Virus record (IMG/VR): IMGVR_UViG_3300050139_000115
Coordinates: 1 to 53,474 of that record
Direction: 5' to 3' (one strand)
DNA from: a virus
Lineage: Duplodnaviria; Caudoviricetes
DNA length: 53,474 nucleotides
Shown: positions 32,696 through 48,344 of the stretch, in pieces
Numbering within the stretch: the stretch's first letter is position 1
How the letters are laid out: the number at the start of each line of letters is the position of its first letter
Notes under the pieces: model-generated
Told to the model about the DNA's origin: nothing
Seen by the model: only the letters and a program-made list of their open reading frames with translations
Databases searched by the model: none
Position numbers and translations under genes: made by a program

Positions 32696-35600
32696 GCCGC
32701 TACCGTTTGCAGCCTCTGACCATCTGGGGTCATGTTGCGAATTAGGTCATAGTGTTTCTTGACGCTCTGCGCGGTGACGTTCGATACCGCAACCAGCTTA
32801 TCAATTCGACCATTCAGCGTCTTGATCTCCTCTAGCAGATCATCGTTCGCGGCGCTCCCTCCGCCCCGCCAATTTGACGCCTGGGACGGGGTGAGTACAG
32901 CCTCGCCCTTGTGCGCACGCATCAGGTAGTCGTCGCTTGGCACATAGCGGAGGCCCAGCGCGTGGCCGGGAATCGCGGCGATGATCGCTTTCTGTGCCGC
33001 GATGTTGTCGGCGATAGCCTGCAACTGTGCCGCCTGTCCGTAGGTCTGGTCGTAGACGCCGCCCGCCTTCCAGAACTCCGCTTTGAATCCTGCGAAGTCA
33101 GAGTTGGTATACCCTCCGAGCAGTTGATACTGGCTCGTATTCTGAAGAATGCCCGCCGCGTCGACGTAAAGCTGTGCAGCCGCGCCACCCGAAGCGGTTT
33201 GCTGATTCACCCCATACGCGGAAACGAGTGAGTTGATACCGGTGATGCCCACGTTAACCGAAGCGACGAGTGCCGACTGCTGCGCAACAGATGCCGAGAG
33301 CGCGGCTTGTGCGTCGCTGAGGCGCTTTGCGTCAGCCGCAACCGTCGCAGCCTTTGCTGCTGCATCATCGGCTGCGGTCTTCGCTACCGCGGCTGCGTCT
33401 GCATTCTGCAAGACGCTTTGCTTGGTCAGATCAACCAAAGTCTGGAGTAATGTCGCTGTCGTCTTCGAAGCAAGGGCAATTCCATCGAGACTGTCGCTCT
33501 GAATCGTGGATCCAGAGATCAACGACGTGAGCATCGCGCTGGAATAGGTCGCGTTGAGTAGGGTTATGCTCTTGACCGCATCTTGAATTGTGTTCCCCGT
33601 CAGTACCAACTTGCTTTGCGCATCCGTCAACGCATTGCCCGCCAGAATCGCGGTCACCTGTTGCAAAGTGAGCGCGTTCCCTGCGGTAAGCTGCGCAAGC
33701 TGATTCGCGGTAATCGTGTTGCCCGCCAAAATCGCGGTCACTTGTTGTGTGGTGAGCGCGTTGCCAGAAGAAAGGGCCGCAAGCTGCTGCGCGGTCAACG
33801 TGTTCCCGGTCAGAATCGCGAGCATTTGTTCGGAGGTCAGCGCGTTCCCGGCAGAGAGTTGAGTGAGTTGCTGCGCGGTGATGGTATTCCCCGTCAGGAT
33901 TGCGACAACCTGTTGCGCGTTAAGCGTATTGCCCGCGGTGATCTGCGCAATCTGACTTTGCGTGAGCACGTTCCCGGCGAGAATCGCAAACACCTGTTGC
34001 GAGGTCATTGTGTTACCCGCAACGAGCTGGGTAAGCTGCTGCGCGGTGATCAAATTTCCAGCCAAGATTGCAAGCACCTGCTGCGTGCTCGTCGCGTTCC
34101 CTGCGGAAAGTTGCGTTACCTGCTCAGCGGTCAGGCTATTCCCAGCCATGATCGCGACAATTTGATTTGCGGTCAGCGCATTGCCCGCGGCAACTTGCGC
34201 AACCTGGTCAGAGGTCAACGTGTTGCCCGACATGATCTGGACAATCTGCGAAGCGAGCAGCGCGTTGCCCACGCCAATCTGCGCAACCTGATCAACCGTC
34301 AGCGCGTTGCCAGCATTAAGCTGCGCGATCTGAGCTTGCGTTAGCGCGTTCCCCGCGATGAGTTCGACCAACTGCGATGCGGTGATGCTGTTGCCATTGG
34401 TAATCTGCGTTACCTGCTCAGCGGTCAGGCTATTTCCGGCGATGATCTGCCCCGTCTGATCTTGTATGAACAAATTCCCGTCAATCACCTGCACCGTCTG
34501 CCCCAGAAGCGCGGCATGGATTGTGTCAAGCAAAGCGAGTTGGCCTTTGAGAATTTCCGTGTTCGGGTCGACCTTGCCCAGCTCCGCCTTAACCTGCTCC
34601 AGCACCGCGACCTGGGTTTGGAGCAAGGCAGCGTTGTGTTCTTCCCAATTTATCGACGCAACCGCAGCGGCGTTCGCTTTCTGCAACATGTCCACCACTT
34701 TGCCTTGATCTCGCGCATAGGCGTTGGCGCTGGTAGCGGTGGCCATGCTCGCAGCGAGGTAGTCGTCGGCGGCTTTCGGCAATGCCTGCAGCGCCGAAAC
34801 ATCCCCGCCCATGGCTGCGCTGAAAGTTTGATTCAGAACCTCCGACGCGCTCGACTTCCCCGCACCGATGATTTTGGTAATCTCTGCGGTGAGGTTGGTG
34901 CTGATCTGGCGATAGGTATCCGCCAGTCGGTGCGCCGTGTTCGCTGCGCTACTGCTCGCCTGTATCTCGGCGCTCACCGCTGCGGTTGCTGCCTGCTGCG
35001 CCGTGGTGATCTGCTGTGCAAGGGTCTGCACCGCATTCGCGGCGCCGGTGGCAGAGGCCGCGAGATCCTGTGCGGCATAGATCTGTAGCTGCAATGCGGC
35101 TAATGATGGGTCAAGGGCCTTGAGTTCATCCTCGCGCTTCGCGGCGAGAGCGCCGATCGCGTTGCCTTGGAGTTCCATCAGTTGGATCTCCATCTGCCGG
35201 CGCTGATTGTCGAGCGCGAGCTTGGCGGCGATCTGCGCGTTGGTGATTCGAACGAAAGTCTGCGTGAGCGACTCACCGCTTTGCTGCAACGCGGCGATAT
35301 TCGGGATCAGGGTAGAAGCAATGGTATCTGACGTCTTCGCGAGCACATCGATCATGTCCTGCTGGACGCCCTTGCCCGAGTTCGCGGCTTGCACCGTGAT
35401 TGCAGCGAGCCCGGAGGTATCCATATTCAGCGCCTTCGCTTGCGCTTCCATGCTCGCGAACACCTCTGCGACCGACTTGTTAAATGCGGTGAGCGAATCC
35501 GCGGGTATTGGATCGACGCGAGATCCGCCCCAGTAGTCATTCGGTGGAGTGCCGATCATCGTGGTCACGCCCCCACCCGAGAGACCCCCGCGTGAAACAG

Positions 35601-38202
35601 AACCCGTCAAATAGTTCCCAACGTCCTGCGCCTGGCGGTCGCTCCCGCCCCCGCCGAACATCGAGCCAATCATGCCCCCTAGAGTGGAGCCAACGATAGT
35701 GCCAATCGGACCGAAGTAGCTTCCCGCAATACCGCCGAGCGTCGATCCGATTCCACCCGCCACATTCCCGGTAGCGGCCATGACCAAACCGCTAATGAAG
35801 GGGAGGCCAAACCCGTAGTTTCCGATGTCCGCAATCCACTGGGAGCCCATGCTGACGCCCATGTCTTGGAACACCCCGTTCGCCATCCCGGTCACCCCGG
35901 TCGCGCCTTTCGAGAACATACTCCCGATGCTGCTCATGCTACTCAACGAACTCAGCGAACTGGCTGCAGTTCCACCCGCCACTGTGCTACCCGCTGCGCT
36001 CGCCACACCCGCTGCACCGCCGCTGACGACGGACCCAACAACGGTCACCATGAACTTCTGCGCCGCCAAGCGTGCGAGCGCATCCTTGAGGACGGAAATG
36101 AAGTCGGCCATCCCGAGTTTGCCGTGGCGGAAGAAGTTGTACACCGCGTCTTCCATACCCTTGAATGCGGTGGCGAACGCATTCTTGGTTTGCAATGCCG
36201 AGTTGGTGGCATTGTCCATGTACTCGTTGTACGCTTGCTTCGCGCCGGCGACCCAGTCGCGCTCTTTTGCAATCTTGAAAGCAGTTACATCGAGCACCTG
36301 TGCTTTCTGGTCTGCCGCCTCTTTCACCAGCAAAGCCTCTGCCGCCGCGTACTGCCCTCGGTCATCGTTGCTCGCTCGCGCTTGCGCAGCGAGGGCGAGG
36401 AGCTTGGTGCGCAGTTCGACATCGATCTTGTGCGCTTCATTCAGCAGCGCCTGCTCCGTGGTGGTCTTCCCAAGCAAATCGATCTGGAACTTGAGATCCT
36501 CCAGGTACGCAGCATCTTTCTCAAGTGTGGGGTCAACCATCGCGCGCATCGCGAGCGAAGCCTTGCGCGCATCCGCCGCCGCAGCTTCCGCCAGCACTTG
36601 ATTCCCCTGCACTTCGGTTAGATGCTGCAAACTTCCCGCGAGGTGCGTCACGCTACCGTCGGCAGCCATGACATCTCGCCCGTACAATTCCATCGCTACT
36701 TTTTCAGCATCGGTCTTCTCGAGCGCTGAACCAGACTTGATCTGCAACTCGTCCAGTGTCTTGGTGAACAGAATCACCTGCTTCAGCGCATCGACATGTC
36801 GCGCAAGTGCCAACACGTTTCCGGCGTGACTCTCGCCGTTCTTGTCAACGTCGAAAGAAAGTTTCTGCAATGAACCAGACAGCAACTGGTACATCGTTTT
36901 CTCTTCTTGGGTCTGGTTATCCAGCTTGCCCATTTCCTGCTCAAGCGACTGCATGGCGTGCTCGTAGAGCTTCAATTCGGCGGCGGCAAGCTTCGGGTCA
37001 CCGACAGCGAAGTTAAGGGGCTTTTTGACGACAAGTTGACCATACTGATCAACGGCGCCGGACCAAGGCCCAGGTTCTCCGGCAGGCCCAACCCCAGTCT
37101 TGGCAAGTGACTTACGATACTCAATCGCCTTCTGCACCTTGTCCGCAAAGGACTCAAATCCCATCGCAGCCTTGTTGATATCCTCCAACATCGCGTCATC
37201 AATGGTGCCAACCTGCGTTTTAAGGTCATTCCACGCGGCAACTATTCCTTCGGTGTTGAGCGCGGGTTTCTCGCTTGGTTTTGACTTCAGCGCCCAAGCT
37301 TCCGTGCGCCCCACCGTTGCCATCGCGCCGCCAATTCCCTTGCCTATGATATTGACAACGGTCGCGAAACCCTTGAAGCTGTCAACTGCATTCGCAACCG
37401 CAATCGCAATACCATCCGCCCAGTCAGCTAGCGTATTATCAGCGGCGAGCCTTTTCACCGCGCCACCTAGCGAATCCGACTGCGTGGCCGCCTCAAGCAA
37501 TACGCCTACAAAGGTCTGCATCGTTGGAATCAGCGCACTTGCAATCGTGTTCCAGAGAATTTCCTTTTGCTGGTTCAACTTGGCAACTTCAATCCGATAC
37601 TCTTCCGCTCGCTGCGCTTGCTCGGTGGTAACGCTCGCTTCGATATCCCCGAGTTCGAGCAGTTTTTTCATAACCGGAATTTGATCCGCGCCCGCTTTCC
37701 CCAATATCGCGCGTACCACCGCGAGCTTGCCCGCGCCGTCGCTGTACTTATCGAGCGCAACAGCGATGTCTTTGTACATCGTGTTTAGGTCTTTTTCATT
37801 CCCAGTCGCGTCCTTCGTCGTCAGACTCAGCTTAGCGAGTGCCTGAGTCGATACCGCAGTTGCATTCCCAGACGCCGACATCGTCTTGCTCAGAATCGAC
37901 ATCGCCTGCTCCACGCTCGCGATGTCTTTCCCGGCAATCCCAGCAACAAATTGCAGCTTCGAAAAGTTCTCTACGCTGACCCCGGTTTTCTCCGACGCGT
38001 CTTTCAGTCGCGCCATCGAATCCACTACGGAGTCAATTTTATCGATCAACATCTTCGCCGAAAACCCGACCCCGATCGTCCCAAGAATCTGTTCGATTCC
38101 GCGCACAGCATCCCCCACGATGCGATTTGCCGAGGCCATATCTGACGTCAGACGCGCCATGTTGGCGAGCATCTGAACCTCGAGTGTGCCGGCGAGCGCC
38201 AT
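32692..38202 (-). CDS. Tail tape measure protein
   Basis: ~1836 aa, Ala-rich helical, lambda-like TMP C-domain (W..G...A...Y...A), C-terminal HALGL.YVP.D.Y...AH.GEAVLT. Confidence 0.9.
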   Translation of the reverse strand: MALAGTLEVQMLANMARLTSDMASANRIVGDAVRGIEQILGTIGVGFSAKMLIDKIDSVVDSMARLKDASEKTGVSVENFSKLQFVAGIAGKDIASVEQAMSILSKTMSASGNATAVSTQALAKLSLTTKDATGNEKDLNTMYKDIAVALDKYSDGAGKLAVVRAILGKAGADQIPVMKKLLELGDIEASVTTEQAQRAEEYRIEVAKLNQQKEILWNTIASALIPTMQTFVGVLLEAATQSDSLGGAVKRLAADNTLADWADGIAIAVANAVDSFKGFATVVNIIGKGIGGAMATVGRTEAWALKSKPSEKPALNTEGIVAAWNDLKTQVGTIDDAMLEDINKAAMGFESFADKVQKAIEYRKSLAKTGVGPAGEPGPWSGAVDQYGQLVVKKPLNFAVGDPKLAAAELKLYEHAMQSLEQEMGKLDNQTQEEKTMYQLLSGSLQKLSFDVDKNGESHAGNVLALARHVDALKQVILFTKTLDELQIKSGSALEKTDAEKVAMELYGRDVMAADGSVTHLAGSLQHLTEVQGNQVLAEAAAADARKASLAMRAMVDPTLEKDAAYLEDLKFQIDLLGKTTTEQALLNEAHKIDVELRTKLLALAAQARASNDDRGQYAAAEALLVKEAADQKAQVLDVTAFKIAKERDWVAGAKQAYNEYMDNATNSALQTKNAFATAFKGMEDAVYNFFRHGKLGMADFISVLKDALARLAAQKFMVTVVGSVVSGGAAGVASAAGSTVAGGTAASSLSSLSSMSSIGSMFSKGATGVTGMANGVFQDMGVSMGSQWIADIGNYGFGLPFISGLVMAATGNVAGGIGSTLGGIAGSYFGPIGTIVGSTLGGMIGSMFGGGGSDRQAQDVGNYLTGSVSRGGLSGGGVTTMIGTPPNDYWGGSRVDPIPADSLTAFNKSVAEVFASMEAQAKALNMDTSGLAAITVQAANSGKGVQQDMIDVLAKTSDTIASTLIPNIAALQQSGESLTQTFVRITNAQIAAKLALDNQRRQMEIQLMELQGNAIGALAAKREDELKALDPSLAALQLQIYAAQDLAASATGAANAVQTLAQQITTAQQAATAAVSAEIQASSSAANTAHRLADTYRQISTNLTAEITKIIGAGKSSASEVLNQTFSAAMGGDVSALQALPKAADDYLAASMATATSANAYARDQGKVVDMLQKANAAAVASINWEEHNAALLQTQVAVLEQVKAELGKVDPNTEILKGQLALLDTIHAALLGQTVQVIDGNLFIQDQTGQIIAGNSLTAEQVTQITNGNSITASQLVELIAGNALTQAQIAQLNAGNALTVDQVAQIGVGNALLASQIVQIMSGNTLTSDQVAQVAAGNALTANQIVAIMAGNSLTAEQVTQLSAGNATSTQQVLAILAGNLITAQQLTQLVAGNTMTSQQVFAILAGNVLTQSQIAQITAGNTLNAQQVVAILTGNTITAQQLTQLSAGNALTSEQMLAILTGNTLTAQQLAALSSGNALTTQQVTAILAGNTITANQLAQLTAGNALTLQQVTAILAGNALTDAQSKLVLTGNTIQDAVKSITLLNATYSSAMLTSLISGSTIQSDSLDGIALASKTTATLLQTLVDLTKQSVLQNADAAAVAKTAADDAAAKAATVAADAKRLSDAQAALSASVAQQSALVASVNVGITGINSLVSAYGVNQQTASGGAAAQLYVDAAGILQNTSQYQLLGGYTNSDFAGFKAEFWKAGGVYDQTYGQAAQLQAIADNIAAQKAIIAAIPGHALGLRYVPSDDYLMRAHKGEAVLTPSQASNWRGGGSAANDDLLEEIKTLNGRIDKLVAVSNVTAQSVKKHYDLIRNMTPDGQRLQTVAA
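33590..34490 (-). repeat. ~22 degenerate 14-aa (42-bp) repeats within TMP
   Basis: AGNALTxxQxxxIx units counted in the translation. Confidence 0.9.
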
Positions 38203-38212
38203 GTGTTTTCCC

Positions 38213-38240
38213 AATAAAAAGGCCCGCCGAAGCGGGCCTT
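38213..38240 (-). terminator. Rho-independent terminator after moron
   Basis: AAGGCCCGC-TTCG-GCGGGCCTT then TTTATT. Confidence 0.75.
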
Positions 38241-39477: not shown

Positions 39478-40050
39478 TTAGACTGCGGCGACGGTGACCG
39501 GCGCTTTGCAAAATTGCAGGTTCGCCGTCCGCTCTTTCGCAGCGCCTTCCGATGCCGCCGAGGCTTTCCACGAGCAGACCAGGCAGTCGAAATAGGTGAT
39601 CTCACCATCCGGGAACGTGGCTTTGATGCTGTAATGATTCGGCGAGTCATTGGCTGCTGCGCAGATCACCTGGCCGGCATCGGCCGGCATGTCGCCGACC
39701 ACCATCGGGCCGCCGCCGTAGTTCGCGGTGCCCTTAGTTTTTTCAATGGGACCGGCAATGGGTTTCCACTCGTTCACCGCGCGATCGGCGCCGAACTCGG
39801 GAAACGACTTCACCTTGCCGATGGTGGTGTAGACGATCGAGGTGAGACCGTAACCGGCGGCGTCATAGGTTGTGGGCAGCGTTGCGCTGATGGCGTAGAC
39901 GGTATCTGTGTACGACTCGACGGCTGTGTGGGCTGCCTGGAGCAGGAAGCCGCTTCGTTGCATGTAGTTGAACAGCTTGTCATTCGCCAGTTCAAACAGG
40001 GAAAACACCGCCGAAGCCAGCGGCCGAACAAGTGATTTAATGCTTTTCAT
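39478..40050 (-). CDS. Major tail (tube) protein with N-terminal leader
   Basis: ISATLP.TYDAAGY, IG.V...EFG, K.KG..N.G, DAGQ. Confidence 0.8.
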   Translation of the reverse strand: MKSIKSLVRPLASAVFSLFELANDKLFNYMQRSGFLLQAAHTAVESYTDTVYAISATLPTTYDAAGYGLTSIVYTTIGKVKSFPEFGADRAVNEWKPIAGPIEKTKGTANYGGGPMVVGDMPADAGQVICAAANDSPNHYSIKATFPDGEITYFDCLVCSWKASAASEGAAKERTANLQFCKAPVTVAAV

Positions 40051-40075
40051 GATTTCATCCTCTCGACGGTATTTC

Positions 40076-40103
40076 AAAGAAAAAGCCCGCGACTTAGCGG
40101 GCT
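40076..40103 (-). terminator. Terminator-like hairpin
   Basis: AGCCCGC-TAAGTC-GCGGGCT then TTTTCTTT. Confidence 0.65.
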
Positions 40104-40124
40104 GGTGGTGGTGCTCGGTGGTGC

Positions 40125-40370
40125 TTATCGGCGCAATCGATTCACGATGCGCGCGATGATGCCGGGATCAGGCCGTAAGATCGCGATGTCCTGCCCGTTG
40201 TCTAAAATCACGCATTCGAAGTCGTCAAATACTTCATTCAGCATCGCGGCGGCTTCGCCACGCTGCTTGTCGGTCAGCCGAAACGGACAGCGGAATAACA
40301 CGACATCGCCCGCGCGCAAGCTGACCACGGCAGCGGATTCGAAGACGGACAGTGGATTTTCAGCGTCCAT
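40125..40370 (-). CDS. Hypothetical protein
   Basis: MDAENPLSVF...; overlaps the upstream stop. Confidence 0.5.
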   Translation of the reverse strand: MDAENPLSVFESAAVVSLRAGDVVLFRCPFRLTDKQRGEAAAMLNEVFDDFECVILDNGQDIAILRPDPGIIARIVNRLRR

Positions 40371-40887
40371 CAACTTTGCCCGACTCAACACGCTCGACCT
40401 CGATCCCAGTCGCGCGCAACTCGGCGGTAATCTGCTCCAGCCCTTCGGTGAAGCCGTAAAACCCAAACTCGCCGTGCGTCTTGTCGTACGCTTGCGGGTC
40501 GAAACCAAGCAGCACGATCTTGACGGCGCCGGCAAGGGCGGCAATGCGGATCGCGGCGAGCGCGTTGTTGCGGATCTCGATCGTGTGGCCGGGCTCGATC
40601 GTGACGGTCTCGTACATCATTCCTGGATACAACGCGTCGATGTCACACTCAACTCCACAGATGCGCAGGCCCTTGAAACCGGCTGCGGCCTCCCAAAACG
40701 GATGATGCGGATCGAGCGCAACGAACATGTCGGCCCAGGGCGCAAACTGCACGGCGCGATTAACCGCGATGGTCTTGTAGCCGCGGGCGCCGTCGGCAAC
40801 AGCTTGGCTCATGCTTGGGGCATTGCCGAGGATGGCGACGGTCTCGCCTTTCCATAGATCGTTCGGGACAGTCCACGGTTTCGTCAT
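40360..40887 (-). CDS. DUF115/MptE/Maf-like (sugar-transferase fold) protein
   Basis: GETVAILGNAPSM, IAVN, PWAD...D, IVLLGFD; AGGAG RBS. Confidence 0.65.
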   Translation of the reverse strand: MTKPWTVPNDLWKGETVAILGNAPSMSQAVADGARGYKTIAVNRAVQFAPWADMFVALDPHHPFWEAAAGFKGLRICGVECDIDALYPGMMYETVTIEPGHTIEIRNNALAAIRIAALAGAVKIVLLGFDPQAYDKTHGEFGFYGFTEGLEQITAELRATGIEVERVESGKVDGR

Positions 40888-40901
40888 GTTCGACTCCTAA
40901 T

Positions 40902-41333
40902 TTATGTGCCTACCCAGCGCACTAAAAAATCCTGCGACTTCGTCCACAAATCGGTAACCTGGTCATGCAGACTTGGCCCGAGCGTATCGGGGCTTATGCT
41001 GTCAACGACAATCCCGTTGACCGTCGCCCGTTGGCTAGGGCACGCCGCCACGACGAGTTTAAGCAGTGCCTTGCATCCGGCTTTGCCGTCGCCCTGCGGC
41101 GTTCCATACTGCCCTTTGCACAAGACGGCGACCTGCACACGCTCCGTGTACAGGTTTAGCCCATCGCTAATCTTTATCGTTTTGTAGCGCACGGTATCAA
41201 TGTCATCCACAACAATGAATGGCATCACCGCGCCCAGGGCTGGGTCGTTGTCTTGAATGCGCGCAGCGGGCACGATAGCGAGGACCGGGCCGTTGTTGGC
41301 CAGGAGGTAGCGGATTACCGCAGTGCCGCTCAT
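40902..41333 (-). CDS. Tail terminator/completion protein
   Basis: Position; VPAARI...ERVQV...SQDF.V. Confidence 0.65.
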   Translation of the reverse strand: MSGTAVIRYLLANNGPVLAIVPAARIQDNDPALGAVMPFIVVDDIDTVRYKTIKISDGLNLYTERVQVAVLCKGQYGTPQGDGKAGCKALLKLVVAACPSQRATVNGIVVDSISPDTLGPSLHDQVTDLWTKSQDFLVRWVGT

Positions 41334-41689
41334 TCCGGATCACCAACGACACCGTTGGTCAGCCATCCGTGATACCGACCGACGAAGTTGATCGACGGGT
41401 GCATGGTGATATTCGGCGGCACGCCGGTCACAGTCCAGCAGTCGTAGTGGCCTTTCTCTGCGCTGAACCCCTGGCCGTCGATGAGAAAATAGTTCCTGCC
41501 GGGCAACATCACCACAAGTGGCTTGCGGTTTGCGTTCTGCGCGAAATATTGCGCGGTCAGGTGACGCTCTTTCAGTTCCTCGGCTGGCACGTCGAGAAAC
41601 CACATATCGCCGATCTCGCGCTTGGAAACGTCGACGTTGCCGTCCTCGTTGAGTTCCGGCTTTTCGATCAAGCGGCAGGGCCAGCTCAT
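41330..41689 (-). CDS. DUF6527-like protein (copy 2)
   Basis: WTVTG.PPNITMHPSI....YHGWLTNG. Confidence 0.65.
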   Translation of the reverse strand: MSWPCRLIEKPELNEDGNVDVSKREIGDMWFLDVPAEELKERHLTAQYFAQNANRKPLVVMLPGRNYFLIDGQGFSAEKGHYDCWTVTGVPPNITMHPSINFVGRYHGWLTNGVVGDPE

Positions 41690-42000
41690 ATTTTTACCCA
41701 GATACCCTTCGTCAGATGCCCGTGCCAACCGTCGCTCTCCGATCCCGGGCCGGCCATGTCGCCCAGCGACGCCGTGATCGTCAGCGTGCCGTCCGGTTCC
41801 TCGGTGAACACATGTGGCGGCGAGACGACGTGCTGCACACTACGCGCTCGCGCTGGCGCACCGGGATCGCGCGCGTTCGGCTTTAGGAAAAATACGGCAG
41901 GTTTGTCGCCCGTGTAGCCCGTAACCGGGCCGCAGTAGTCACCAGGTTGCTCCGGCGTCGGGTGCTGGCCGGGGATCAGGGGAAGGCGCCGACCGATCAT
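41686..42000 (-). CDS. DUF6527-like protein (copy 3)
   Basis: H.FTEEPDGTLTITASL...WHGHLTKG.W. Confidence 0.65.
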   Translation of the reverse strand: MIGRRLPLIPGQHPTPEQPGDYCGPVTGYTGDKPAVFFLKPNARDPGAPARARSVQHVVSPPHVFTEEPDGTLTITASLGDMAGPGSESDGWHGHLTKGIWVKI

Positions 42001-42245
42001 TCTTTTCTCCAAATGCCGCGCTCTAGGAACCCATGCCAGCTCGGGCGCCCCGTTCCTTGTTCAATCAGTATTGACGGGCTTACAGTGATCGTGCCGTCGT
42101 CGTGCTCAGTGACGGTGTGATTTTCGAGCGACCCGAGATGCACGTTCTCATCAGGCGGACGCGCACGCCATACGCCATTAGCATCCTTGCCGTAATCGCC
42201 CGGCCCGTATGAATTCGTGTAGACGCGCCGACCTTGCATGGTCAC
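41997..42245 (-). CDS. DUF6527-like protein (copy 4)
   Basis: HTVTEHDDGTITVSPSIL...WHGFLERG.W. Confidence 0.65.
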   Translation of the reverse strand: MTMQGRRVYTNSYGPGDYGKDANGVWRARPPDENVHLGSLENHTVTEHDDGTITVSPSILIEQGTGRPSWHGFLERGIWRKE

Positions 42246-42814
42246 TCATCCCCTTCGATCAGTACCGCCGAAGTGTCGATGCCTTCCTTTGTCGCAAGGC
42301 GCTGCTTTATATACTCCGCCGCGGCAATCACAGCGTTCTGCGCTTGGCTATCCAGTGCAGGTCGTAAGAACGGGTGTGCGACAAGGGGCGGGTGCATCAC
42401 GGTTTTGCGGAAGAGCCCACCAATGGAAAGGAACCCGCCCTTCTTGAACGCCGCAATCGGATAAGGAGTTGTGGTGTGGTGTTTCCAAAACCCTTCGATC
42501 ATGTGCGCATAGAACACGTCGGCGCCGGTCTTTTTATTTTTTCCGCCGACCGTAACCATTGAGGTGACCCATTGGCCCCTGACGCGCGTCCCGATGCGGA
42601 TGCTATCTCTCAGCGCCCCCATGTAGCCTCCGTACAGCCGGACATTTTCTTTGTTCGGCGGCCCGACCGGGCAATTGGCAACGGCTGCATCCCTGATTGG
42701 TTTGATGCCTGCGCGCAACGCCCCGCGCATGATGTTTTTTTCCATCTTGACGGGAAATTCATCGAGGAATTTCTGGAGGTCCGAAAGGCCCTTGACGTGG
42801 ATCGTATCGCTCAT
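42242..42814 (-). CDS. HK97 gp10-like tail component
   Basis: VKGL.DL...L, R.ALRAG, GALRDSI, FYAH..E, PFLRPALD. Confidence 0.85.
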   Translation of the reverse strand: MSDTIHVKGLSDLQKFLDEFPVKMEKNIMRGALRAGIKPIRDAAVANCPVGPPNKENVRLYGGYMGALRDSIRIGTRVRGQWVTSMVTVGGKNKKTGADVFYAHMIEGFWKHHTTTPYPIAAFKKGGFLSIGGLFRKTVMHPPLVAHPFLRPALDSQAQNAVIAAAEYIKQRLATKEGIDTSAVLIEGDE

Positions 42815-43197
42815 GACGAGTACCGCTCCGCCATCACCTCATTCGACTCCCGATTACCGAACGTCGCAGGCCCAGCGACAATCTGGAATGTCTGATCCGC
42901 CTCGCCGCCGCGGCCGTGCAGGGTGATGCGCATGGCGGAATTCAGATCGTCACGCCACGGATAGATGCGTATGCGGACTTGCTCGCGCGCCGTTGGGAGT
43001 CCCATTTTCACGGCCTCGCTATATGATGGCAGCACGTCTTTCGCATTCGCCCAAAAGCGCACTGCGGTTGGTGGGCTATCATTCGTCGGCACAAGCGGCA
43101 CCCAGGCCACAATCTCCGTTCCGGTATTTGGGTCCAGATCGGGCGGCTCTTTTATTTTCCACACGCTGATCAGCCGGTCGTAGTCTGCGATGCGCAT
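42811..43197 (-). CDS. Head closure/head-tail adaptor
   Basis: Position; W...WA..., RIRI...MRI. Confidence 0.7.
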   Translation of the reverse strand: MRIADYDRLISVWKIKEPPDLDPNTGTEIVAWVPLVPTNDSPPTAVRFWANAKDVLPSYSEAVKMGLPTAREQVRIRIYPWRDDLNSAMRITLHGRGGEADQTFQIVAGPATFGNRESNEVMAERYSS

Positions 43198-43198
43198 T

Positions 43199-43882
43199 TC
43201 ACACCCCGAGGCCTGTCCGGTAATTCCACCACAAGTCATGCACGCGCATCGGTAAAGAGAACGTCTGCGCAGCGCTCACTTCCTCGCGGTTCATGAACAG
43301 CGAGCCGATGACGAGCAGCATTCCGGCCTTAACGAGAAACGGCACAGCAGCCGGCGCCATGCCAGCAACAAACTGCACAATCACAGCGTCGTCCAAACCG
43401 TAGCCACTCCGCCTGAAGTTTTCGCTCTCGCTTGAGGCATTCGAGCCAAAACCTACTGGCCACATATCCATCTCATGGTCGAGCCGGTGATAAACAGCCG
43501 GCCACGTCTGCCCGATCTTCAGCCGCAGCTTCGGCTCGTTAAGGTTTCCGTTCAACTCATACACGGTGTCGGCAAGCGTCTGCCGAGCGCCGGCCGCGTC
43601 CAGATACGTCACACTCACAATCGAAGTCACCGGCGGGAATAGCGGAACACCAAAATTGCGCCCGCGCGCCTCACGTGTCGATACGGCGAATGCGCGCTGG
43701 CAAAACTGTTCGGCCATTTCGCGCGCGGTGCTGATCAGGCGTGTAACGTCGGCGTCGGTCGGGTGCGCCGTCACATCAGCCGGGTCGGCCGTGATCTTCA
43801 GATGGGAATTTGCCTCACCGAGCGTGATCGGTTCCACGATGGTAGTTTCAGAATCTATGCTCACGGGGCCCTCCAGTAGCAT
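43199..43882 (-). CDS. Head-tail connector (gp6-like)
   Basis: EPITL.EA..HL, LI..ARE.AE.F, VP..VK...LL.IG.L..NRE. Confidence 0.85.
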   Translation of the reverse strand: MLLEGPVSIDSETTIVEPITLGEANSHLKITADPADVTAHPTDADVTRLISTAREMAEQFCQRAFAVSTREARGRNFGVPLFPPVTSIVSVTYLDAAGARQTLADTVYELNGNLNEPKLRLKIGQTWPAVYHRLDHEMDMWPVGFGSNASSESENFRRSGYGLDDAVIVQFVAGMAPAAVPFLVKAGMLLVIGSLFMNREEVSAAQTFSLPMRVHDLWWNYRTGLGV

Positions 43883-44391
43883 TGACACGGTGCCGATTCG
43901 ATCACATGCAGCCCCGCCGCTTCAATCGCCTTTGCCACACCAGCGCAGTTCTTCCAATGCCAATCATCGAACACCACCAGGCCGCCTGACACCATGCGCG
44001 GGCGCAACCATACGATTGCGTCCGCCGTACTTTTCTCCAGATCCATGTCCACATGGGCGAAAGCCACCTGATCGTGCAGCCCTTCGGCGGATTGAGGGAA
44101 CAACCCGGCGATCAGGGTGACGTTCCCCGGCATCCCGGCCTGGACGGTGGTCAGAGTCGTGTCGCCGAATTCGCCCGGCTTGTGGAAGTCGATCGCCCGC
44201 CATGATTCGGCCGGCATGCCGGCGAAGGTGTCGAACCCGTAACAGGACCGCCGAGGCGAGGCCTGGGCTAGGGCTTTCAGAGTTCCACCCTGGTACACCC
44301 CAAGCTCCACGATAGCGCCCTGCAGGCCCTCCACCGTAGCCAGCAGCCGCAACAAGGCCGCGGACTTGGCCGGCGTCATCAGTGTTTGCAT
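43861..44391 (-). CDS. TylF/MycF-like O-methyltransferase
   Basis: GAIVELGVYQGG, YGFDTF.GMP, FAHVD.D, GG.VVFDD. Confidence 0.85.
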   Translation of the reverse strand: MQTLMTPAKSAALLRLLATVEGLQGAIVELGVYQGGTLKALAQASPRRSCYGFDTFAGMPAESWRAIDFHKPGEFGDTTLTTVQAGMPGNVTLIAGLFPQSAEGLHDQVAFAHVDMDLEKSTADAIVWLRPRMVSGGLVVFDDWHWKNCAGVAKAIEAAGLHVIESAPCQCYWRAP

Positions 44392-45929
44392 GTTTCCTCG
44401 ATAAATTTTGCAATCCGCTCCCGCGCCGCCGGCACATCGATCGCCTTGTCGTGGTTGCAACCATGCGACCAACACGCGCACGGCTTCACCGGCTCGATGG
44501 CGCACCAGGGCGAATACCGCGCACCGGCTGAAAACGACCGCGCATCCTCGAATCCGCCGAAAATAGCAATGACTGGCGTGCTGACCGCCTGCGCCAACAC
44601 CAGCGCAAAGCCGGGCGAGCAGAACACTAGATTCGCCGCCGCCGTGAGCGCGGCAATCGTCTCAAAATCCAACTCGCCGCGGTGAAACTCGGCGTCGGCC
44701 TTGATCTGCGGGCCGATGAGCCACTCAATTCCGTCCATCAGGTCCGCCAGACTGATCACGAAATACCGATCGCGGATGCCTGCGATCAACGCGTGGCTGG
44801 CTGCCAGGTCGGGGTTACGCGCGACCTTCGCCCGCGCCGAGCCGTTGTTCTGGTCCGAAATTGCGACCGGCGGCCGGTAGATCAGCAGCGGCTTCGTCGG
44901 TTTCAACTTCGCCAGCAGCGCGTCGGCCTTCGCTTTCCATTCCGGCTTGATTGGCATGCGGAAGTCGCCAACCGGAACGCCGCATACATGGGCCATCACG
45001 CCGAGTACGGAGCCGCAGTCCTTCACACCACGCGGCATCATGGACAGGTAACCGTTTTCAATCGTCCGCGCGCCTCGCGGTGGCTGCGTGGCGCCGTAGA
45101 GTGCTGCCGCGCGCACCTCATTCTTCGCCATCCAGCAAATCCGCGACTTTTTCGGCACTAGGTGCAGACGCGGCATATCCCAAAACACCTGCGGCCAGGA
45201 AGTCGTCAGCCAAACCTCGTTCGACTTCATCAACTCGCGCACAAGCGCCCGTTCGTGCAGGTTGTCTCCGAGGCCGTGCATGCCATGCAGGAGCAGCGCC
45301 TGCTTACCCGGCGCCAGCGCTTCCTCGATCGGCAGCCGCTCAAAACACGTGATCGCCGTGCGCCTGGTAGCGTTGACGACCTCGACTCCGTGCGAGCGCA
45401 GATCCGCACCGAGCTGCACCATGCGCCGGCCCCACTCCGGCATCGTCCCCAGGTTTGGCAAATTCCCTTCGTGGTCGCCGTGGTGATGGCTCTCACCCTT
45501 CGGCCCGCGCTGCATGTCGTAGCCGAGCAGGATGATCCGCGCGGCACCCCACATATAGGCGAGGTTAATCGCCTGGTAGCCGCTGTTCAGGCCGGTATGG
45601 ATGCGGCCTGGCTTCGTCCCCAGCCCAGGCTCGTCAACCGCCTCTACGTGGTTGATGACGCCTCGGAGCCGGTCGGCGCACGTCCAGCATTCCCCGGTGA
45701 AGTTCCGCTCGACTTCCTCGCTGTACACTGTCCACCAGCGCATGTCTGCCGCGTAGCACGCGTCGGCCCATAGCGCCTTGCGAAATGTCGTGCAGACTGC
45801 GATTACGCGCCGCTCTTGCGGTGCTTTCCGGCGCCAGGCTTTGACAAGAGCGACTTCCCCATCGCTAAGGCTTGGTCCACTGGCGAGGCAGACGACGGTG
45901 GAACCTTTCCATCGTCCGGCGCTTTTCCC
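44379..45929 (-). CDS. Two-domain DUF115/Maf-like + GT9-like glycosyltransferase (probably expressed as a -1 frameshift fusion)
   Basis: VVCLASGPSL, NSGYQA.NLA, IILLGYD, VVNAT; then GLGD and LAQAV.TPV.AIFG; no in-frame start near the domain N-terminus. Confidence 0.75.
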   Translation of the reverse strand, partial: GKSAGRWKGSTVVCLASGPSLSDGEVALVKAWRRKAPQERRVIAVCTTFRKALWADACYAADMRWWTVYSEEVERNFTGECWTCADRLRGVINHVEAVDEPGLGTKPGRIHTGLNSGYQAINLAYMWGAARIILLGYDMQRGPKGESHHHGDHEGNLPNLGTMPEWGRRMVQLGADLRSHGVEVVNATRRTAITCFERLPIEEALAPGKQALLLHGMHGLGDNLHERALVRELMKSNEVWLTTSWPQVFWDMPRLHLVPKKSRICWMAKNEVRAAALYGATQPPRGARTIENGYLSMMPRGVKDCGSVLGVMAHVCGVPVGDFRMPIKPEWKAKADALLAKLKPTKPLLIYRPPVAISDQNNGSARAKVARNPDLAASHALIAGIRDRYFVISLADLMDGIEWLIGPQIKADAEFHRGELDFETIAALTAAANLVFCSPGFALVLAQAVSTPVIAIFGGFEDARSFSAGARYSPWCAIEPVKPCACWSHGCNHDKAIDVPAARERIAKFIEETCKH

Positions 45930-46123
45930 GCTTCGGCCACGATAGCTGCGGCACCGCGCACGCTCAGCGCCTGATCGACGCGGCGCGCTATGAGCTTCAC
46001 GCGCACGAGGCCGGCGCGCTCCAAGTCGCGCGCAAGGCCCTCTTCCATCAGCATCGGCCGGCCTTCGTCCGCGTTGATGTGGCCGTGGACAAAGGAGGTC
46101 AACGGCACTGCTTCGACTTGCAT
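45803..46123 (-). CDS. Small capsid-adjacent protein containing slippery site G GGA AAA
   Basis: GGAG RBS; A.DLE.AGLV motif; directly after the major capsid gene. Confidence 0.75.
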   Translation of the reverse strand: MQVEAVPLTSFVHGHINADEGRPMLMEEGLARDLERAGLVRVKLIARRVDQALSVRGAAAIVAEAGKAPDDGKVPPSSASPVDQALAMGKSLLSKPGAGKHRKSGA

Positions 46124-46135
46124 TATCTTTTCTCC

Positions 46136-46163
46136 AAAAAAAGGCCCGGCCGAAACCGGGCCT
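46136..46163 (-). terminator. Terminator after major capsid gene
   Basis: AGGCCCGG-TTTCGG-CCGGGCCT then TTTTTT. Confidence 0.75.
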
Positions 46164-46182
46164 GGTTGCATCACTCGACGGA

Positions 46183-47469
46183 TTACGTCGCCGGCAGGTC
46201 AGTATTCTTGATGAAACTTTCCGGCCGATACACCGCGAGTCCCAGTCTCTCTTCGTTGCGCACCGAAACCATGTTGCGCACAAAGTTGTCCTGATCTTCG
46301 CTCGATATCACGACGTTCGAATCCTCCCGGTCGAACACCTGCGCGCCAAGCTTGAACGCGCCGACAAGCGCCGTGTCCACCGTCATCGCCGGAGTATCCA
46401 CTACCGGCCGCCCCCACAAAGCAGGTTGCGCCAGCGATTGCGGATTCGCGAAGATGTAGGCGCCGATATCGTTCTTCGTCAACTCGATCGCCGCCCAGTC
46501 CGACGGGTGCATCACGATACCGGTCGACGGAAATAGCGCGAGTTCTGCCTGCAACAGCATCAGGCGAATCACGTCGATCTTGGTCGCTTTCGCAATCGCG
46601 ATCGGTGCGCTAAACGCAGTTGCCTGCGTATAGATGCCGTTCAGGTTGTTCCCGACACCGGAGCCCTTCAGCAATTGCGTTTCTTCTTTGAATTGCAGGC
46701 CGTAGCGGAGCCGTTGGTCGATCATCGATTGCAGTTGCGCAAAGTCATCGAGGATCTGCTTCGATGCCTTGATCCAGTGCGCGACCGTGACGACAGCCGA
46801 CTGCATGAGTTCGTAGGTGATGTCCGATTCCGGCTTGAGCGTCGTTTCCGAAACGGTCGCGGCGTTGTTGGTAAACCCAGTTTCCTTCACGTACTGGATC
46901 AGGTTCGATCCGGTACGACCAGGGCTGATCAGGTCGCGCACCGTCATACGCCGCTGCGGAATGCCGATGATGCCAGGCTGAAAGTCCGGCGCCACCCCCG
47001 TGGTCGTCGTGTTCGTTGTCGGGATGCTGGTGAGCGCCGCCTTGACCGGCAGCACGTAACCGGACTGCGCGCTCTTCATGCCGCCAGCCCCGATCCACGC
47101 CTTGAATCCGTCGTCCGTAACGAGCATTTCCCCGAGCGTCTGCGCCTGCGGCTTTTCCTCGGACCCGCGCCGCGCCGCCTTCTGCTCCACCTCGAGCAGC
47201 CGCGCCTGCAGCTCGCCCTGCTTGACCAGCATTTCGTCGACCTTCGGCTTGTCGGCCGCGTACATGTCGCCGTATTTCTTCGCCTCGGCCAGAGCCTTTT
47301 CGCCGGCCTCTTTAACCTGGTCGCCGATCTTGTCCAGCGCGGCCTTGATTTCTTTCGGGTCCATGTCGTACAAAACCATGCCGACGCGCCCCATGTACCC
47401 GGTCAACGCGCGGTGGAGTGATTCCCCGAGCGCTACCGCCACGGCAACAGCCATTACTTTCAGTTTCAT
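46183..47469 (-). CDS. Major capsid protein (HK97 fold, delta domain, extra N-terminal leader)
   Basis: TVRDLI.PG, V.E...KPES, AHW...SKQIL.D, EE.QLL.G.G, NF..NM...R.EER. Confidence 0.93.
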   Translation of the reverse strand: MKLKVMAVAVAVALGESLHRALTGYMGRVGMVLYDMDPKEIKAALDKIGDQVKEAGEKALAEAKKYGDMYAADKPKVDEMLVKQGELQARLLEVEQKAARRGSEEKPQAQTLGEMLVTDDGFKAWIGAGGMKSAQSGYVLPVKAALTSIPTTNTTTTGVAPDFQPGIIGIPQRRMTVRDLISPGRTGSNLIQYVKETGFTNNAATVSETTLKPESDITYELMQSAVVTVAHWIKASKQILDDFAQLQSMIDQRLRYGLQFKEETQLLKGSGVGNNLNGIYTQATAFSAPIAIAKATKIDVIRLMLLQAELALFPSTGIVMHPSDWAAIELTKNDIGAYIFANPQSLAQPALWGRPVVDTPAMTVDTALVGAFKLGAQVFDREDSNVVISSEDQDNFVRNMVSVRNEERLGLAVYRPESFIKNTDLPAT

Positions 47470-48344
47470 GGTGATTCCTTTCCAATTTCTATTGAGAACG
47501 ATTTCAATGCAGCGAGAACTTCACTTGCCTCGGCAGCGTTCTGCGTGCCGACTTCGGTAGCGCCAGGCGTACCTGTTCCGGTAGCGCCAGGCGTACCGGC
47601 CTTGAATTCTTGGAGTAGCGCGCGCCGTTCGCTGCGCGGCATTCCGGCTTTCGCCAGCCCCATGTCGAGCAAATAGGCCGCGATTTGGTCTTTTTTCACG
47701 CTCGCGCCTTTTTTGACCTCATCGGCAGGGAGTAGTGCGTCGGCAAAACCTTGGTCAACCGCCGCCGCGCCGCCGATCCACGTTTCCGCGTCCATCATTT
47801 TCAGCATGGCCTTCGTCTCACCGCCGGTGCGCGCCGCGTAAATGTCGGCCATCGCGGCGTCGAACGGTTCCAGCGTGTCGGCGATTGCGCGCAGATCGTT
47901 GCGGTTTCCCATCGCCATGACCCATGTGTCATGAATCATCAGGAAGCCCGCGCGCGCAATCAGGATCTCGTCGCCAGCCATCGCGACGACGGACGCGGCT
48001 GAAGCTGCGATGCCAAGCACCTTGACCGTTACGCTGCCCTTGTGGTCGCGCAGGAGGTTGTAAATCGCCATGCCTTCGAACAGGTCACCGCCGGGACTGT
48101 TCATCAGCACGGTCACATCCTTTTCCGCGCCGATGGAGCGAAGAATCCCCGCCATGCGTTTCGCGGTCATGCCTTCGCCGGTCCACGGGTCCACGCCGAT
48201 CGGCTCAAGCACCGAGACCGTGTTTTCCGTAGCCGCGGCCATCAGGTCGGGCGTCCAGCGCTCCAGGGCCTGGGGCGAGATTTCCCATTGCAGCCCGTTC
48301 GGGCGGTCGATCTGGCGGGCTTGCGGCATGGTGCGTTTAGACAT
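47466..48344 (-). CDS. ClpP-like prohead protease
   Basis: NSPGGD.FEG, GIAASAAS, MIH, ETW. Confidence 0.92.
   Translation of the reverse strand: MSKRTMPQARQIDRPNGLQWEISPQALERWTPDLMAAATENTVSVLEPIGVDPWTGEGMTAKRMAGILRSIGAEKDVTVLMNSPGGDLFEGMAIYNLLRDHKGSVTVKVLGIAASAASVVAMAGDEILIARAGFLMIHDTWVMAMGNRNDLRAIADTLEPFDAAMADIYAARTGGETKAMLKMMDAETWIGGAAAVDQGFADALLPADEVKKGASVKKDQIAAYLLDMGLAKAGMPRSERRALLQEFKAGTPGATGTGTPGATEVGTQNAAEASEVLAALKSFSIEIGKESP

Follow-up and report, generated by a model that had tools for sequence, protein, structure and literature searches.

In phage T4, the capsid-targeting sequence and the propeptides cleaved by gp21 represent an N-terminal tag that is present on unrelated proteins and is lost in maturation; this tag brings its carriers to the core of the prohead, is cleaved by the protease of the phage itself and is not known to occur on tail tubes. 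In HK97-type phages, the delta domain is an established N-terminal scaffold (i.e., a helical pro-region that is removed by the prohead protease), and bacterial microcompartment encapsulation peptides, which consist of a short amphipathic helix and a linker, are portable between unrelated cargo proteins. A leader found on both head and tail proteins is the one removed by the host protease Prp; Prp removes a shared N-terminal leader of 13-14 residues, cutting between F and A, from the capsid and scaffold proteins of phage 80alpha, and the same motif occurs on the phage 80 capsid protein and the phi13 major tail protein and is shared with ribosomal protein L27 (PMC5744158).

The DNA analyzed here (the window) is a whole virus record of 53,474 bp with its structural genes on the minus strand. 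A preliminary description of this DNA had noted a motif shared by residues 22-33 of the capsid protein and residues 26-37 of the tail tube protein, and had proposed that it represents a common tag for membrane tethering, for cleavage by the prohead protease or for recognition by nearby transferases. The features relevant to this proposal are as follows.

39478..39936, minus strand: tail-tube body with a lambda-gpV-like fold, beginning AAHT (from model and homologues)
39937..40050, minus strand: tail-tube leader MKSIKSLVRPLASAVFSLFELANDKLFNYMQRSGFLLQ, residues 1-38, with a predicted helix at residues 2-32; the invariant Gly is G34
39940..39975, minus strand: tail-tube core motif LFNYMQRSGFLL, residues 26-37 (from motif search)
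40059..40062, minus strand: Shine-Dalgarno site GAGG ahead of the tail-tube ATG (from sequence)
40084..40103, minus strand: terminator-like hairpin with T-run, directly upstream of the tail-tube gene (from sequence)
40360..40887, minus strand: short DUF115-like/sialyltransferase-like gene (phrog_4603) adjoining the tail-tube gene; context, unlinked to the leader
44379..45929, minus strand: body with DUF115-like and glycosyltransferase parts, past the capsid gene, with a frame that opens at a slippery heptamer (45923-45929); context
46142..46163, minus strand: terminator-like hairpin with T-run, directly past the capsid stop (from sequence)
46183..47364, minus strand: capsid delta domain and HK97-fold body, PF05065 covering residues 159-421 (from Pfam and homologues)
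47365..47469, minus strand: capsid leader MKLKVMAVAVAVALGESLHRALTGYMGRVGMVLYD, residues 1-35 (known capsid homologues start at approx. residue 36)
47371..47406, minus strand: capsid core motif LTGYMGRVGMVL, residues 22-33 (from motif search)
47466..48344, minus strand: ClpP-like prohead protease, PF00574 (from Pfam)
47476..47480, minus strand: Shine-Dalgarno site AAGGA ahead of the capsid ATG at 47469 (from sequence)

The capsid gene (46183-47469, minus strand) encodes an HK97-fold major capsid protein, matching PF05065 with E=1.8e-56 and 192 bits, well above the Pfam cut-off of 24.2. The product of the tail-tube gene (39478-40050, minus strand; start ATG at 40050) is assigned to the lambda gpV-like tail tubes by fold as well as by place in the tail gene order: its model matches the lambda gpV tube (7t2e, Foldseek E=1.6e-7; 9mfe, E=3.2e-8), the protein matches the phrog_158 major tail protein (E=6.2e-8), and the gene lies between the tail-completion and the chaperone/tape-measure genes. 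The two folds are therefore unrelated, as had been stated in the preliminary description.

When the window was translated in all six frames, the motif YMxRxG was present at two places only, the capsid and the tube site. To compare the leaders as a whole, we used an HMM of 36 positions built from 39 tail-tube leaders, including that of the window's own tube and no capsid leader. This tube-leader HMM detected the window capsid with E=6.9e-8 among 10,081 ORFs, where no ORF other than leader-bearing tubes and this capsid scored better than E=2.6, and with E=1.1e-7 among 15,727 ORFs, where, leader-bearing tubes aside, the only further matches with E<1 were the capsids of L081 (E=1.3e-6), L138 (E=3.4e-6) and L092. 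In a search of 9,842 ORFs, the capsids of L207 (E=3.4e-5) and L213 (E=4.0e-5) were also detected. In the alignment, the likeness spans all 35 residues, beyond the motif of 12 residues. These data indicate that capsid and tube bear homologous N-terminal leaders (about 28-40 residues), with the two motifs as their conserved core; the original observation was thus correct but understated. Codon choice differs between the capsid and tube leader DNA, so the pair does not stem from a recent duplication. By hand count, capsid and tube leaders share 6 of 17 core positions in the window and 9 of 17 in L207; leaders within one genome are not clearly closer to each other than to those of other genomes, and we do not claim concerted evolution.

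All 13 leader genes examined open with an ATG preceded by a Shine-Dalgarno-like site, and none of the 13 has such a site just ahead of the mature junction. In the window, these sites are AAGGA (capsid) and GAGG (tube), consistent with the good ribosome binding sites originally noted at both starts, and between the window and L081 the leader frame is kept, with synonymous changes. Translation thus does not start downstream of the motif, and the motif is also carried by tubes and capsids of other contigs; neither of the two observations that were to refute the preliminary description thus holds.

The leader was found on 45 of 124 lambda-gpV-like tubes, on 9 members of a third, unrelated family of proteins with approx. 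275 amino acids and on about 7 capsids of the HK97 type, where it precedes the delta domain. In one further contig (L207), capsid and tube both bear it, and a search for a second leader gene in 5 whole records found one leader gene per record. On a tree of the tube domain (quick IQ-TREE), the leader label changes 23 times, with at least 7 changes forced by well-supported branches, and leader-bearing and leaderless tubes can be sisters (e.g., P0012 and P0059). As judged from these sequences, the leader is an optional, dispensable and portable module that was repeatedly gained and lost. Some tubes carry a different, polar, Q-rich leader at the same place.

A search of 1.84 billion representatives with the leader profile yielded 12 matches with E<=0.001: 7 tubes, 3 repeat proteins, 1 capsid-like fragment and 1 protein of the third family. 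It thus revealed no host protein that begins in a similar way, although a profile of 36 positions is weak at such scale. Named genomes, for the most part of Betaproteobacteria, contained 24 related prophage loci, none of which carried the leader and 1 of which carried the Q-rich leader. The hosts are probably Proteobacteria and not Firmicutes. For the third family (P0132), a single-sequence search found no match in Pfam, PHROG, GenBank phages or viral contigs, and its members in Atlas fall only into unnamed viral clusters; AlphaFold modeled it poorly, with a mean pLDDT of 52.8, and the model gave no Foldseek match at E<=0.001. A weak likeness of this family to jelly-roll capsids is a lead only, by which it may be considered a candidate capsid protein. 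In the openly accessible literature, we found no account of this leader, nor any of HK97 capsids that begin with a signal-like one.

The leader starts with a basic segment (MK.IK). Next come a hydrophobic stretch, which varies in length, an acidic/His-Arg patch ([DE]xLHR) and the core, [FL]x[YFH]Mx[RK]xG plus three hydrophobic residues and one variable residue, which directly abuts residue 1 of the mature protein. Among 48 tube leaders, G is present in 48, M in 41, Y in 39 and R in 33, while the segment that precedes the motif varies widely, being only 12 residues long in the L207 capsid and comprising two membrane-like segments in L213. The tube leader is modeled as a helix (residues 2-32, pLDDT 74-84) followed by a weak linker, and the model of the third family likewise has an N-terminal helix (residues 2-41). 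The leader (net charge, +2 to +5; hydrophobic moment, 0.4-0.7) is predicted to be a single cationic, amphipathic helix with the invariant Gly as its cap. The junction in tubes reads G-h-h-L-x|(A/T/V)AHT, and leaderless tubes of 153 amino acids start M-[APTS]-A-H-T at the same point, so that the start of the window tube body (AAHT) equals what these homologues show after Met. The third family matches likewise, with the leaderless start M..LPTAADF, and capsids show the same boundary (G-M-V-L-Y-D|M in the window).

As compared to the systems described above, the leader most resembles the Prp leader in logic, though not in sequence. Both are short extensions with a conserved motif on non-homologous self-assembling virion proteins, including capsid and major tail proteins (here tube, HK97 capsid and third family); neither is tied to a phage protease, and the Prp leader, too, is dispensable for at least the capsid. 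Unlike the Prp leader, the leader described here is longer (28-40 residues) and helical, with a cleavage that is presumed; the F|A cut site is missing from the window leaders of 35-38 residues, and the profile search gave no host protein that shares its N-terminus. The probable hosts are Proteobacteria rather than Firmicutes. Like the T4 tag, the leader is N-terminal and common to unrelated proteins, but it has no sequence likeness to that tag and is present on tubes. It is similar to the HK97-type delta domain in being an N-terminal helical region, but it precedes a delta domain that is itself intact, as the alignment to homologues begins at approx. residue 36, and it is also found on non-capsid proteins. 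With Sec signal peptides and anchors it shares a basic start and a subsequent hydrophobic stretch, and related capsids bear true-looking signals at the same position; the window leaders, however, are too polar, have a charged patch in mid-leader and show no consistent small-x-small site. Encapsulation peptides provide an analogy only, i.e., a portable amphipathic helix with linker, with no shell partner known here.

We tentatively favor a role of the leader as a removable pre-assembly tag that is read by a common, probably host, factor. Under this hypothesis, phages would add the module to those self-assembling subunits that they make in the largest amounts (tail tube, HK97 capsid and the third family), and it would act as a temporary tag on the unassembled subunit, with the conserved motif near the junction being recognized by one common factor. 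This factor, which may be a protease or a chaperone, would probably be encoded by the host, since the leader shows no covariation with any phage gene; apart from head genes, no gene is common to the window, G001 and G002. We infer that the leader acts before assembly and is removed before or during it. In the capsid, by analogy with HK97-type maturation, the leader is likely lost inside the prohead, together with the delta domain. Tubes would be cut near G-h-h-L-x|(A/T/V)-A-H-T, which would restore the leaderless N-terminus used in tube stacking. In T5 pb6, the tube N-terminus contributes to ring-to-ring contacts and an N-terminal deletion abolishes tubes (PMC8718954).

Some observations count against such a tag. 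The residue before the presumed cut varies (S, Y, C, Q and others), which would be unusual for a specific protease, and no cellular counterpart of a Prp/L27-style mimicry was found in the searches above. The Q-rich leader at the same tube position indicates that the sequence requirement is not universal. In addition, neither leader had a match at E<=10 by tblastn in cultured phages (50,697 GenBank phage records), and cleavage itself is something that we infer.

A possible but rather doubtful alternative is that the leader tethers subunits to the inner face of the cytoplasmic membrane, as an in-plane amphipathic anchor or, in other phages, as a signal-anchor or hairpin, which would concentrate subunits for assembly until their release by proteolysis or polymerization. 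The charge and hydrophobic moment of the leader are compatible with lipid binding, and 28 of 77 related capsid genes encode, in front of the delta domain, an N-terminal extension of >=25 amino acids that includes a hydrophobic stretch; in 21 of these 28, a 19-residue window reaches <=+1 kcal/mol on the Hessa insertion scale. Many of these extensions resemble Sec signal peptides by eye, ending AQA or AHA. Hybrids of a signal-like segment followed by a YMxRxG-type motif also exist (L092, L213, P0143 and P0153), and L007 combines a signal-like leader on the capsid with a YMxRxG-type leader on the tube. On the same scale, however, none of the 39 tube leaders could span a membrane (lowest 19-residue energy per leader +2.9 to +13.4 kcal/mol, median +9.0), nor could the window capsid leader (+7.0 kcal/mol), and these leaders show neither the insertable hydrophobic core nor a consistent small-x-small site of a Sec signal peptide. 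The leader is thus too polar for membrane spanning, and the membrane tethering initially suggested is conceivable only in a form without a spanning anchor. Moreover, lipid binding would not need a conserved YMxRxG or an invariant Gly, the L207 capsid leader is nearly devoid of a hydrophobic N-terminal part, and some tubes bear the polar Q-rich leaders. In SPP1, procapsid precursors form at the membrane but tails assemble away from it (PMC13212656).

More speculatively, and with a lower likelihood still, the YMxRxG-type leaders and the signal-peptide-like ones (found on about one third of related HK97 capsids) might be interchangeable labels that send major subunits to the cytoplasmic membrane, with a host factor that reads YMxRxG acting as gatekeeper. 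If so, the heads (and in some phages the tails) of many uncultured proteobacterial siphophages would arise from membrane-bound precursors that are freed by proteolysis.

It is improbable, if less far-fetched than the readings below, that the leader controls assembly by itself, as a small scaffold or brake that acts in cis or between subunits, e.g., as a coiled-coil that pre-organizes oligomers or as a plug that is displaced by the initiator complex; neither an outside factor nor cleavage would then be required. Hydrophobic residues recur every 3-4 positions along the consensus helix, the capsid leader extends the helical delta domain (itself an N-terminal scaffold), and the leader was found only on subunits that polymerize in high copy number. 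It also sits at the N-terminus, which is involved in the ring stacking of tubes (PMC8718954). Such a mechanism would nevertheless need the same plug or zipper on three unrelated folds, close leaderless sisters assemble without it, and conservation is located by the junction and not along the hydrophobic stripe.

There is little to recommend the notion that the phage maturation protease reads the motif and trims both capsid and tube. By HK97-type reasoning, the capsid leader would be inside the prohead with the delta domain, where this protease acts, and the overlap of the capsid ATG (47469) with the protease stop, as ATGA, couples the two genes in translation. Yet the same leader occurs with a ClpP-like protease (window) and with the unrelated S78 protease (L007), leaderless tubes co-occur with ClpP-like proteases as well (e.g., L018, L026 and L030), and tail assembly happens outside proheads; tubes are not known to be substrates of prohead proteases. 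The proposed prohead-protease tag is thus weakened, while the part of it that concerns loss of the capsid leader with the delta domain is still likely.

Recognition by DUF115-like, glycosyl- or methyl-transferases, in the manner of leader-guided modification, is very improbable and is already largely refuted by co-occurrence. A DUF115-like gene lies near each leader gene in the window, and a DUF115-GT gene follows the leader-bearing capsid genes of G001 and L207. The short DUF115-like gene is, however, present at 51 of 52 leaderless-tube loci, as compared to 4 of 5 loci with leader-bearing tubes and 2 of 2 with Q-rich leaders, and it is absent next to the leader-bearing tubes of L004 and L207. 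G002 is a 92%-complete provirus whose capsid bears the leader, yet BLAST matched neither transferase of the window to it, and L001, with the largest glycosylation island, has a leaderless capsid. Leader and enzyme do not show the co-occurrence typical of leader-guided modification, and this part of the preliminary description is not supported; overall, the leader is independent of transferases and of the protease family. Finally, although cultured capsid homologues start near residue 36, a chance resemblance or an untranslated upstream sequence is virtually precluded by HMM E-values of approx. 1e-7, by conservation of the leader (at least 45 tubes, 9 members of the third family and about 7 capsids), and by the ATG and Shine-Dalgarno-like site in 13 of 13 leader genes.

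A common N-terminal tag on two unrelated folds, as initially proposed, is thus supported and can be extended to a homologous and portable family of leaders. For annotation, gene callers that trim such starts, or that take a signal peptide to mean secretion, will mislabel major capsid and tail genes in metagenomes. The leader also offers a simple experimental handle (reporter fusion or deletion). No phage proteins are more abundant than the subunits of capsid and tube, and both the prevention of misassembly and the site where virions are built are at stake; a leader that has moved among three unrelated virion proteins, with frequent gain and loss, may therefore mark a step of assembly or host interaction that is missing in model phages.

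The N-terminal motif that the preliminary description had placed at capsid residues 22-33 and tail tube residues 26-37 was recovered with the same sequences, and its core, YMxRxG, occurs in the six frames of the window at these two sites only. As had also been described, both starts have good ribosome binding sites (capsid: ATG at 47469, sharing ATGA with the stop of the protease gene and preceded by AAGGA; tube: ATG at 40050, preceded by GAGG), and the bodies of the two proteins are unrelated, as the capsid matches PF05065 and the tube is modelled with the lambda gpV fold. The window is a complete virus record (53.5 kb), with its late genes encoded on the minus strand and ordered as follows:

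first in the block, minus: large terminase
after the terminase, minus: portal
47466-48344, minus: ClpP-like prohead protease
46183-47469, minus: HK97-fold capsid
45803-46174, minus: small ORF
44379-45929, minus: DUF115-like/glycosyltransferase gene
next, minus: TylF-like methyltransferase
next, minus: connector, head-closure and gp10-like genes
41330-42245, minus: three DUF6527-like small genes
next, minus: tail-completion gene
40360-40887, minus: short DUF115-like gene
39478-40050, minus: tail tube
next, minus: chaperones and the 1840-aa tape measure (32692-38214)

Terminator-like T-run hairpins (minus strand) at 46142-46163, directly after the capsid gene, and at 40084-40103, directly before the tube gene, are consistent with transcript boundaries flanking the two most highly expressed genes. 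Two of the three small genes at 41330-42245 matched DUF6527 (one above and one below the Pfam cut-off); the middle gene had no match in Pfam or PHROG and appears paralogous by eye. The tape measure contains a long tandem run of approx. 13-residue repeats (AGNxLTxxQxxQI).

Public tail tube homologues occur in two forms, one of 153 aa, which begins M-A-A-H-T, and one of approx. 187 aa with approx. 35 extra N-terminal residues (consensus MKRIKxLxxxLxAAVxExLHRxxFxYMQRxGLxLxA). Some of these leaders resemble that of the window capsid more closely than the tube leader of the window does (e.g., RESLHRVLSGYMERVGLVLY in the tube of the related locus L005 as compared to ESLHRALTGYMGRVGMVLY in the window capsid). 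When 15,727 stop-to-stop ORFs from 161 sources were compared to a profile of 39 tube leaders, the window capsid matched with E = 1.1e-7; the alignment of the capsid and tube leaders spans all 35 residues, and a chance resemblance between them is scarcely credible. At the DNA level, the two leaders show no likeness beyond that forced by shared residues. Each of the 13 leader genes examined has an ATG start behind a Shine-Dalgarno-like site, and in none of the 13 does such a site precede the mature junction.

Among 48 tube leaders, numbered from the invariant Gly (position 0, 48/48), we observed Leu at -12 (41/48), Tyr at -5 (39/48), Met at -4 (41/48), Arg at -2 (33/48) and Leu at +3 (36/48); position +4 is variable and is followed by A/T/V-A-H-T, which is also the beginning of the leaderless proteins. 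The tube leader of L003 (319-453) has an internally duplicated LHR segment (..AETLHRELHDLGEMLHARLF..) and reaches 45 residues. A second type of tube leader, present in L001 (10001-10135), L011, L178 and the proteins P0032, P0045, P0097 and P0114, keeps the MK..RPLVSAV start, with the remainder a polar stretch that has QQQQ directly before AHT.

Among 124 tube homologues (most homologues come from short contigs of metagenomes, with genes called automatically), 45 carry the YMxRxG leader, 5 the polar Q-rich type and 2 another type, and 72 lack a leader. In a tree built from the tube domain only (a quick IQ-TREE search), the leader label requires 23 changes, at least 7 of them forced by strongly supported branches, indicating that the leader was often gained or lost. 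Capsids with the leader ahead of the delta domain were found in the window, L081, L138, L207, L213 and fragment P0130, and weakly in L092. The capsid of L207 shares 74% identity with that of the window, and L207 likewise has the leader on its capsid as well as its tube; close relatives such as L087 (76% identity) are without it. Exactly one leader gene was found in each of five other whole records, and none was found in cultured phages.

An exhaustive search of 1.84 billion representatives with the leader profile yielded 12 matches at E ≤ 0.001, i.e., seven tubes, one capsid-like fragment, three repeat proteins and P0132, the founder of an unrelated family of approx. 275-aa proteins. All 20 long members have a hydrophobic N-terminal leader, and in 9 of the 21 sequences (20 long members plus P0132) the leader matched the tube leader profile, with E-values of 1e-11 to 1e-4 that refer to this small set of 21 sequences only; the seven members from viral contigs begin at the same junction, without a leader. 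The protein (P0132, P0138-P0157, L199-L205) is uncharacterised, beta-rich and approx. 235 aa long (RVTNPxQSEVIRQRLYDYQLYP...), with or without an N-terminal leader, and comes from viral contigs of 16-20 kb on which PHROGs detected no terminase or portal.

The shared motif had been proposed to be a common tag for the membrane, the prohead protease or nearby transferases. A membrane tether is rather doubtful. The leaders are amphipathic with a charge of +2 to +5 and, on the Hessa scale, much too polar for membrane spanning; those of the window could not cross a bilayer. On the other hand, 28 of 77 related HK97 capsid genes carry a non-homologous hydrophobic N-terminal leader ahead of the delta domain (loci L084, L088-L090, L099-L102, L104, L107-L110, L117, L118, L120-L122, L126, L139, L143, L148, L150, L154 and L007 3081-3230), of membrane-inserting grade in 21 of the 28. 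Many look like textbook signal peptides, and several are Sec signal-like, ending in AQA or AHA before a second weakly hydrophobic segment; we found no description of signal-like N-terminal leaders on HK97 capsids in the literature. Moreover, hybrids place a hydrophobic segment ahead of a YMxRxG-type motif, and L007 combines a signal-like capsid leader with the YMxRxG leader on its tube. Peripheral membrane binding is therefore possible.

AlphaFold predicts the window tube leader as a single helix (residues 2-32, pLDDT 74-84), connected to the tube fold by a linker of low confidence. That the leader is a self-contained brake or zipper is unlikely. A prohead protease tag is more improbable still, since the leader occurs with an S78 protease in L007 (on the tube) as well as with the ClpP-like protease of the window, and a tag specific to one protease is thus unlikely; in an HK97-like maturation, the capsid leader must nevertheless be lost along with the delta domain. 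Recognition by the transferases can be largely set aside, as the short DUF115-like gene, an almost constant component of this head-tail module, occurs in 51 of the 52 loci without a leader (and in 4/5 with the YMxRxG leader and 2/2 with the Q-rich type), and as genome G002, with a leader-bearing capsid, matched neither window transferase. This sialyltransferase-like gene (phrog_4603; L001-L080) lies in the head-tail joining block in 57 of 59 covered loci, pointing to virion glycosylation as a trait of the family irrespective of the leader.

No start codon lies close to the domain start of the DUF115-like/glycosyltransferase body. Its frame opens within the upstream small ORF at a conserved GGGAAAA (45923-45929, minus strand; L168 15197, L001 2197 and L207 11496), where translation gives ..EAGK APDDG.. 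in the zero frame and, in the -1 frame, GK SAGRWKGSTVVCLASGPS, with which the DUF115-like domain begins. A stop in the -1 frame lies just ahead of the heptamer in L001 and L207. The arrangement resembles a conserved -1 programmed frameshift that would yield one short and one long product.

The motif's position beside the junction, the variable N-terminal part, the unrelated cargo, the frequent loss and the lack of co-variation with any phage gene lead us to favour, tentatively, a portable tag of temporary use that a single shared factor would recognise, in the simplest case a protease or chaperone of the host, and that would later be removed. The nearest precedent comes from staphylococcal phages, in which a Prp-cleaved leader is also found on capsid, scaffold and a major tail protein; its purpose is described as unclear (PMC5744158). 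Tube N-termini contribute to ring stacking and, in T5, deletion of the N-terminus prevents tube formation (PMC8718954). Removal of the tag, which we infer along with the host factor and the timing, would expose an N-terminus used in assembly.
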